The position numbers and the translations under genes were made by a program. Below are positions 3,334 to 3,792 of a DNA stretch of 4,581 nucleotides, in pieces (position 1 is the first letter of the stretch; each line of letters starts with the position of its first letter). The DNA is taken from IMG/VR virus record IMGVR_UViG_2558860290_000012. The stretch is one strand, 5' to 3'. A model generated the notes under the pieces. The model was not told the DNA's origin, did not search any database, and was given only the letters and a program-made list of their open reading frames with translations. The DNA comes from a virus (taxonomy: Duplodnaviria > Heunggongvirae > Uroviricota > Caudoviricetes).

Positions 3334-3352
3334 TTAGTAGGCTCCAGAAAGC

Positions 3353-3377
3353 AAAAAACCCGCCGGGTGGCGGGTTT
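3353..3377 (-). terminator. Rho-independent (intrinsic) terminator at the end of the accessory cassette
   Basis: On the minus strand, directly after the TAA stop of the 138-aa gene (complement of 3376..3378): AAACCCGCC-ACCC-GGCGGGTTTTTT. A 6-bp all-GC stem (3359..3364 pairs with 3369..3374), 4-nt loop (3365..3368), then a run of 6 U (plus-strand A run 3353..3358). The plus-strand orientation has only a 3-T tract, so function is mainly on the minus-strand transcript. Confidence 0.78.
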
Positions 3378-3792
3378 ATGAATCGTAGGTTTTCAATTTT
3401 TCGAGTTCATCAGGAGGAAGTTCTATGAAGGTTTCCTCTGCTAATTTTATCAGCCGGGGAAGCATCGAATCAGCTTGCTGATGAGCGTTTGGGCTGATGA
3501 TTGCCAATATCTGATAGTGTTCATCGATATAAAGATGCTGAGCATATACCAAAAAATTATCACATGTCCGTTCACTCAGAGATGCTTCTGGAGGCCAGGG
3601 TTTATCGCCAGGTAGCTTTAAGTGAATTTTCCTGATATTGGCAGCCATCGCATCATAGTTACGTTCAAAACCGCCTAACGAACCAAAACACCAGAACTGG
3701 GAACCCTTTGAAATATAATCGGCAAGCATTTGAGCATACTTATGTGCTGCAGCTAAATGACGCAATTCTCCCGTGATACTGACTTTTGCCAT
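3376..3792 (-). CDS. Hypothetical protein (138 aa), second gene of the two-gene accessory cassette; function unknown
   Basis: ORF in the supplied track. Start ATG (complement of 3790..3792) lies 1 nt after the TGA stop of the upstream gene (minus strand reads TGA-C-ATG), indicating coupled translation. AT-rich codon choice (TTA, AGT, ATA, TAT frequent) and about 40-45% GC in the 60-nt blocks I hand-counted, against about 48-62% in the baseplate genes. No resemblance to structural proteins that I can recognise. Contains R11-H12-x4-H17 (RHLAAAH). Confidence 0.7.
   Translation of the reverse strand: MAKVSITGELRHLAAAHKYAQMLADYISKGSQFWCFGSLGGFERNYDAMAANIRKIHLKLPGDKPWPPEASLSERTCDNFLVYAQHLYIDEHYQILAIISPNAHQQADSMLPRLIKLAEETFIELPPDELEKLKTYDS

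Follow-up and report, generated by a model that had tools for sequence, protein, structure and literature searches.

A conserved hairpin and T-tract at the 3' edge of a cargo slot upstream of the spike gene in lambdoid myoviruses

Genes and signals of the window

The stretch of DNA analyzed here (the window, 4,581 nucleotides, from the Caudoviricetes record IMGVR_UViG_2558860290_000012) carries all its genes on the minus strand (Table 1). In the direction of transcription, a small cargo cassette is followed by a hairpin, the tail spike gene, and a set of baseplate and fibre genes, and the late genes in 1..2581 can be reached only through the hairpin. It should be noted that the DUF2612 baseplate gene contains a one-base deletion in an A-run at 418-424 (A5 in the window, A6 in the related locus L017; one or two gaps against the PSS-04 prophage described below). 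The resulting frameshift alters the 3' end of the gene, giving 208 aa versus the 226 aa annotated in PSS-04. The cause may be a sequencing error, or else this prophage copy is defective.

Table 1. Features of the window, in order of position
Feature	Coordinates	Strand	Remarks
Fibre gene, start only	within 1..2581	minus	Last gene in the window
DUF2612 gene	406..1032	minus	
Baseplate_J gene	1029..2228	minus	
117-aa gene	2228..2581	minus	No Pfam match; SEN34 homologue annotated as baseplate wedge subunit
Tail spike gene, 250 aa	3333..2581	minus	PF18352 N-terminal domain and GpV Apex motif (PF18946)
Spacer GCTTTCTGGAGCCTACTAA, 19 nt	3352..3334	minus	Between T-run and spike ATG; carries the spike RBS
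Predicted intrinsic (Rho-independent) terminator	3377..3353	minus	Hairpin plus T6, by direct reading of the sequence
YafO-family toxin gene (putative), 138 aa	3376..3792	minus	PF13957; last gene of the cargo cassette
190-aa cargo gene	3794..4366	minus	Sole match phrog_35514, function not known
AT-rich noncoding gap	4440..4509	minus	Two candidate sigma70 promoters for the cassette
Candidate cassette promoter TTGCTA-N17-TAAACT	4468..4440	minus	Consensus and PWM scan
Candidate cassette promoter TTGAGT-N16-AATAAT	4509..4482	minus	Consensus and PWM scan
3' remnant (...APKIIGSFPCKKVDG, then stop) of a ca. 105-aa secreted-protein gene	4535..4581	minus	Left side of the variable slot

The hairpin that precedes the spike gene ranked first among the terminator-like sites in a consensus scan of the window. 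By direct reading, it spans 3377..3356 and consists of the stem AAACCCGCC/GGCGGGTTT, with 9 bp (6 of them G-C pairs), around the loop ACCC. A T6 run occupies 3358..3353, and the sequence past the stem reads T6-GC-TTT. On the minus strand, the whole region is ...TAC GAT TCA TAA ACCCGCC ACCC GGCGGGTTTTTT GC TTTCT GGAG CCTACTAA ATG GCA, in which the TAA (3378..3376) is the stop codon of the 138-aa YafO-family gene and overlaps the 5' arm of the hairpin. Folded by itself, the hairpin has an energy of -15.1 kcal/mol, and its 76-nt context is more stable than its shuffles (z = -2.8). An intrinsic terminator consists of a GC-rich stem-loop and, directly after it, a U-rich tract in the transcribed strand; the hairpin has this anatomy and would function as a terminator in vivo. 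A search of the window against Rfam (E≤1) gave no match to a known structured RNA.

The preliminary description of this DNA had placed a terminator at 3377..3353 and the spike ATG at 3333 with only a GGAG ribosome-binding site (RBS) between them, and these positions are exact: the RBS (3345..3342) is the only such signal in the 19 nt. It had also reported neither a TGT-N12-ACA element nor a convincing sigma70 pair in the ca. 150 nt upstream, and both observations were borne out. A P2-type late promoter (TGT-N12-ACA at ca. -55 from the first gene of an operon) does not occur in the window. The sole match to this pattern in the whole window, at 2969-2986, is on the plus strand inside the spike gene, in line with chance frequency, and none lies near the spike start or the hairpin. 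Given this single chance match elsewhere, and a genome context that is lambdoid, a P2/Ogr late promoter was rejected. For sigma70, the consensus scan of the minus strand of 3334..3480 found no sites. With a position weight matrix (PWM), the best site in that interval was CTGATT-N18-TAAAAT at 3473..3444, whose score is equalled by ca. 14% of the shuffles of the region; another weak sigma70-like site lies at 3410..3382, and both are upstream of the terminator. An internal sigma70 promoter in 3334..3480 was rejected as well, with the consensus scan empty and the best PWM site nonsignificant and upstream of the terminator. With no promoter of their own at this locus, the spike and baseplate genes must depend on polymerase that arrives from upstream, past the terminator.

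The cassette on the other side of the hairpin is compact, with a single nucleotide between the TGA of the 190-aa gene and the ATG of the YafO-family gene. The product of the latter matches PF13957 with 62.6 bits (cut-off 25) and reaches only 31 bits against the NCBIfam equivalog (cut-off 153), and because this second cut-off is missed, the profile scores place the putative toxin as a distant member of the YafO family and not as an orthologue of E. coli YafO. No YafN-type antitoxin was found directly upstream of it. This position is taken by the 190-aa protein, about twice the size of YafN, which had no match in Pfam, NCBIfam, or PADLOC. It is the presumed partner or antitoxin of the YafO-like toxin and, as such, possibly an antitoxin of a new type. 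PADLOC did not recognize either of the two proteins, and a known defence system was rejected as the identity of the cassette. The two candidate promoters in the AT-rich gap have scores equalled by 15% of the gap shuffles, and neither is significant singly. Ahead of the RBS of the 190-aa gene, by a few nucleotides, is a near-perfect palindrome (GTCGTTT-T-AAACGAC, 4380-4394), a possible operator through which the cassette would regulate itself or, alternatively, an mRNA hairpin. The base composition of the cassette deviates from that of the flanking phage genes, with a GC content of 0.42-0.49 (3451-4500) versus 0.51-0.55 in the spike region (2251-3300), a modest difference. Among 5,426 complete E. 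coli genomes, the cassette was not found outside the context described here, i.e., between the genes for the baseplate hub and the spike.

A nearly invariant hairpin and a variable slot

We collected 93 relatives of the locus through the spike protein. A hairpin was counted when it was perfect, GC-rich, of at least 6 bp, followed by a T-run of at least 4, and within 50 nt of the spike ATG. Counts were made by direct stem search; loop extraction from minimum free energy folds chose wrong hairpins in some loci. The hairpin and its T-run were present in 88 of the 93 relatives, and there were two near-misses, one with a single stem mismatch (L053) and another with one G between the stem and a T6 run (L081). 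From the end of the T-run to the spike ATG, 81 of the 88 have exactly 19 nt. Across the relatives, the GGAG is invariant and the stem almost so, and the loop is found in about 20 different sequences. The alignment of the hairpin contains one two-sided change, and the covariation support is weak because the stem hardly varies. In three distant relatives (L008, L012, and L046), the terminator is kept with a different stem, as it is in Klebsiella phage Mulock (AGCCCAC-TTCG-GTGGGTT-TTTT). The case for the hairpin as a terminator is thus an indirect one, drawn from its conservation and from these independent hairpins. One relative, L029, has cargo and no terminator.

The hairpin is found with or without the cassette of the window. 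Cassette-less phages and E. coli prophages match the window from ca. 8 to 3376-3379, where the similarity ends at the cassette stop codon, so that all or nearly all of the hairpin is included. The same hairpin is preceded by a different gene of 170 aa in Escherichia phage vB_EcoM-606R2, and in Salmonella phage SEN34, the gene before the hairpin is another one of 138 aa. Among the 5,426 complete E. coli genomes, the junction formed by the 5' end of the spike gene and the terminator was detected in 273 (ca. 5%), and this cassette in only 37. These comparisons assign the terminator to the phage backbone and not to the cassette; the possibility that the cassette had brought it was rejected on the homology end-points at 3376-3379 in loci without the cassette and on the 93-locus comparison.

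What lies before the hairpin is, by comparison, hyperdiverse. The left boundary of the slot is conserved and corresponds to the stop codon of the 354-aa hub gene. From there to the spike ATG, the distance ranges from 569 to 1,876 nt, with 32 sequence clusters in 89 loci, and the sequences just 5' of the hairpin belong to 32 unrelated cargo types. The usual content is a secreted protein of ca. 105 to 115 aa with ...APKIIGSFPCKKV as its C-terminal end; behind it, on the late strand, come one or two unrelated genes. One recurrent pair consists of a ca. 250-aa protein and a ca. 130-aa protein with an SRAYYxMYH motif, without matches in Pfam or PADLOC. Other cargo includes a DUF2335 membrane protein, further membrane proteins, several lipoprotein-like proteins and, in one cargo type only, a homologue of the defence gene PD-Lambda-1 (L026, 409 aa, E=8.5e-84 by PADLOC). 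For most of the cargo, Pfam, PHROGs, and NCBIfam gave no function, and we found no recombinase or transposase in the slot. The only cargo-free relative, L015 (51% spike identity), has a hub-spike gap of 41 nt with neither a terminator nor a promoter-like gap.

In the window, only a 17-codon remnant (MDAPKIIGSFPCKKVDG, then stop) is left of the ca. 105-aa secreted-protein gene (4535-4581; L002 16520-16600). In the PSS-04 prophage, this remnant is preceded by a 154-aa lipoprotein-like gene, which points to a replacement of the 105-aa gene. In another E. coli prophage, BY63, the same cassette lies behind a 110-aa gene at the position of the secreted protein, which indicates that the cassette moved between sub-contexts.

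An AT-rich gap of at least 60 nt precedes the cargo in 22 cargo types. The sigma70 scores of these gaps are higher than those of equal-sized windows of structural genes (Wilcoxon p=2e-6), a difference to which AT-richness may contribute in part. About one-third of the cargo types have no noncoding gap, and not all cargo is a moron with transcription of its own. A moron has been defined as a gene set within a phage operon that is usually expressed independently, as exemplified by the "ant moron" 5' of the P22 tailspike gene (PMC2629481). At the locus studied here, related phages carry different genes, or none (L015), at the same position of the operon, and a terminator lies downstream of them. 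The best reading of these data is that the slot represents a moron or cargo hotspot inside a single long late operon, with the hairpin marking its 3' edge.

The likeness to the morons of P22- and lambda-type phages extends to several features. Nonstructural genes that differ among syntenic relatives are located between two late structural genes, usually with an AT-rich, promoter-like gap upstream and an intrinsic terminator downstream, just before a structural gene for host contact, and the late operon would be, as in the lambdoid carriers of morons, under Q antitermination. There are also differences. The tail here is contractile (DUF3383 sheath, PF18352 spike, and Baseplate_J), unlike those of P22 and lambda, and the cargo repertoire (YafO-type toxin pairs, SRAYYxMYH pairs, PD-Lambda-1, and membrane proteins) is different as well. 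Moreover, the terminator is not each moron's own but a nearly invariant backbone sequence common to all cargo types. This group of enterobacterial lambdoid myoviruses is widespread. Its cargo, mostly uncharacterized, includes putative toxin-antitoxin pairs as well as at least one known defence gene. The block ACCCGCC-N3-6-GGCGGGTTTTTTGCTTTCTGGAGCC (approximate) provides a handy anchor for mining cargo that would be expressed in lysogens.

Phage type and late gene organization

Two near-identical E. coli prophages provide the genomic context. PSS-04 is 98.6% identical to the window, and BY63 contains the cassette at 99.9% identity. In both, the early part comprises an integrase, cI/cro/cII, replication genes, a nin region, and a Q antiterminator gene. 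Q is followed by holin/endolysin/Rz, terminase, portal, head, DUF3383 sheath, tube, and tape measure genes and, at the tail end, by the baseplate plug and hub, cargo, spike, Baseplate_J, DUF2612, and fibre genes, everything from Q onward being on one strand. The same layout is found in the isolated phages Salmonella SEN34 (genus Brunovirus) and Escherichia vB_EcoM-606R2. The Q proteins of these phages and prophages match PF03589 or PF06530, and in all four elements (PSS-04, BY63, SEN34, and 606R2), the Q gene is directly upstream of the late genes and on their strand. The gene complement identifies the element as a lambdoid temperate myovirus related to Brunovirus SEN34 and not as a P2-like phage, and the window's own phage would carry an upstream Q like the prophages that are 98 to 99% identical over the window. 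The baseplate hub and plug genes are directly upstream of the cargo, so the spike gene is not the first of its operon.

The segment from Q to the holin gene in PSS-04 (Q-PR'-tR'-S) shares 98.2% identity with lambda (J02459, 43886-45235). After Q and ahead of the first late gene, it contains the promoter PR' (TTGACT-N17-TAAATT), the Q-binding and pause region, and a lambda-type tR' hairpin of -26.4 kcal/mol. PSS-04 thus agrees with lambda at 98% identity in Q, PR', and tR' as well as in the 6S-RNA leader, and all its late genes follow on one strand, although the downstream structural module is unrelated to that of lambda. The structural module and the terminator also occur together with other Q families (PF06530 in 606R2 and a 172-aa Q in BY63). 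On the late strand of PSS-04 (26.6 kb), the hairpin before the spike is the sole strong simple hairpin with a T-tract besides tR', the next one having -8.5 kcal/mol, which fits a signal tied to the cargo slot.

P2-like phages transcribe V, W, J, I, H, and G as one of several late units behind an Ogr-dependent promoter, and they too have variable cargo hotspots. The phages studied here resemble them in having a variable cargo slot in the tail-gene region. As to differences, there is no Ogr-type motif, the spike combines the PF18352 N-terminal domain with a gpV-like Apex motif, the regulatory genes are lambdoid, and the late genes would form a single Q-dependent unit instead of four Ogr-dependent operons. 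The prophages do not have the P2-type genome organization (Ogr activator and separate late operons); their regulatory region is of the cI/cro/cII/nin/Q type. A P2-type late promoter is not to be expected in a lambdoid myovirus that has a Q antiterminator.

Transcription across the hairpin

A terminator without a promoter behind it ceases to be a paradox once the locus is seen as a moron slot in a Q operon, and no regulatory novelty is required. We consider it very probable that the hairpin is a backbone terminator bounding the moron slot, which insulates the lysogen and is read through with the help of Q during lytic growth, and that no spike-proximal promoter exists. In the lysogen, a cassette promoter within the AT-rich gap would drive the 190-aa and YafO-family genes, and the terminator would halt this transcription before it enters the genes for the spike, baseplate, and fibre. 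Upon induction, polymerase from a PR'-type promoter beside the Q gene, ca. 20 kb upstream, would be modified by Q. In lambda, Q makes a nozzle on the RNA-exit channel; terminator hairpins are thereby prevented, and the action of Q is processive over tens of thousands of nucleotides (PMC9388147). Polymerase made hairpin-resistant in this way would pass both tR' and the cargo-slot terminator, and the spike would be translated from its own GGAG on the read-through transcript, without need of a promoter next to it. What seems modestly new is that the terminator forms a conserved edge to the rich cargo hotspot of these Brunovirus-like lambdoid myoviruses.

The fixed position of the hairpin in 88 of the 93 relatives, whatever the cargo, might also reflect a role in lytic growth as a partial attenuator, providing less transcript for the spike, wedge, and fibre genes than for head and tail. 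Such a role is compatible with the reading given above, and the P22 ant moron has been reported to affect how often polymerases from the late promoter get to the tailspike gene (PMC2629481). However, we regard it as unlikely, since Q-modified polymerase is described as essentially termination-deficient (PMC9388147), the cargo-free L015 does without a terminator, and plain insulation accounts for the conservation equally well. Recombination at a short GC-rich terminator sequence common to the incoming genes, with the hairpin as the junction of cargo exchange, seems very unlikely. In all 32 types, the cargo does end only a few nucleotides from the same stem, with the cargo stop codon abutting it in some, and the loops partly follow the cargo type (GGAT with C4, TTCG with C9 and C19, and ACCA with C10). 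Yet plain linkage predicts an association of this kind, several cargo types have two or more loops, and ACCC, the most frequent one, is spread over many types. Besides, the slot lacks any recombinase or transposase, homologous recombination in the hub and spike genes on either side would suffice without a special site, and in E. coli the cassette stays within the hub-spike context. Taken in a more general form, i.e., that the hairpin, T-tract, and 19-nt RBS block act as a docking boundary for cargo swaps or as a calibrated attenuator of the spike, wedge, and fibre dose, the idea is quite improbable; if true, it would explain a stem conserved more strictly than the neighboring coding sequence across 32 cargo types.

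The preliminary description had seen the spike as the head of a baseplate operon whose expression seemed to need read-through or antitermination from further upstream or a promoter embedded in the cassette gene, and had called this consistent with insertion of the cassette into a promoter region that existed before. The Q context favors antitermination from upstream. A hidden promoter that drives the spike and baseplate genes, whether from within the 3' end of the cassette gene or from the spacer before the ATG, is, in our opinion, highly improbable. The weak sigma70-like sites at 3473..3444 and 3410..3382 could be taken as candidates, but both are upstream of the terminator with scores that 14% of shuffles equal, and the 19-nt spacer is too short for a promoter. 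More decisively, the sequence 5' of the hairpin is unrelated in the 32 cargo types, and thus no conserved promoter is possible there, even though all these phages must express their spike. As to the origin of the terminator, its arrival with the YafO cassette, inserted in the former promoter region of a P2-like baseplate operon, can hardly be maintained. The overlap of the YafO-family stop codon with the hairpin would agree with it. Against it, the same hairpin, spacer, and RBS are found in cassette-less relatives and are kept with 32 cargo types, the junction is present in 273 E. coli genomes versus 37 with the cassette (so that the terminator is not peculiar to the latter), and the gap of the cargo-free L015 is 41 nt long and promoterless. 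The P2/Ogr frame itself gives way to the cI/cro/cII/nin/Q organization and the lambda-like Q-PR'-tR' of PSS-04, with no TGT-N12-ACA near the gene, and a separate baseplate operon headed by the spike gives way to one co-oriented cluster after Q, from the lysis genes to the fibre, with hub and plug upstream of the spike.

Some minor features of the prophages can be added. In PSS-04 (L002 9700-12352; record 3511800-3514413), the annotation lists the genes for the fibre and its assembly, which follow DUF2612, as truncated pseudogenes. The element also adjoins a second lambdoid prophage remnant, and the PSS-04 copy is probably not a viable phage. The weaker hairpin mentioned above (GAGCCTCGCGATGCTGGGCTT-TTTT, -8.5 kcal/mol; L003, NZ_AP027666.1 3535900..3535880) sits between the lysis genes and the gene of a Rha-family regulator, itself located between the lysis and terminase genes, and regulator gene and hairpin together may represent a second small moron in the late operon. 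Finally, two tRNA genes (Thr and Asn; L003 7391-7546) lie between the lambda-type tR' and the holin gene of PSS-04 and are also present in mEp506 and Kapi1.
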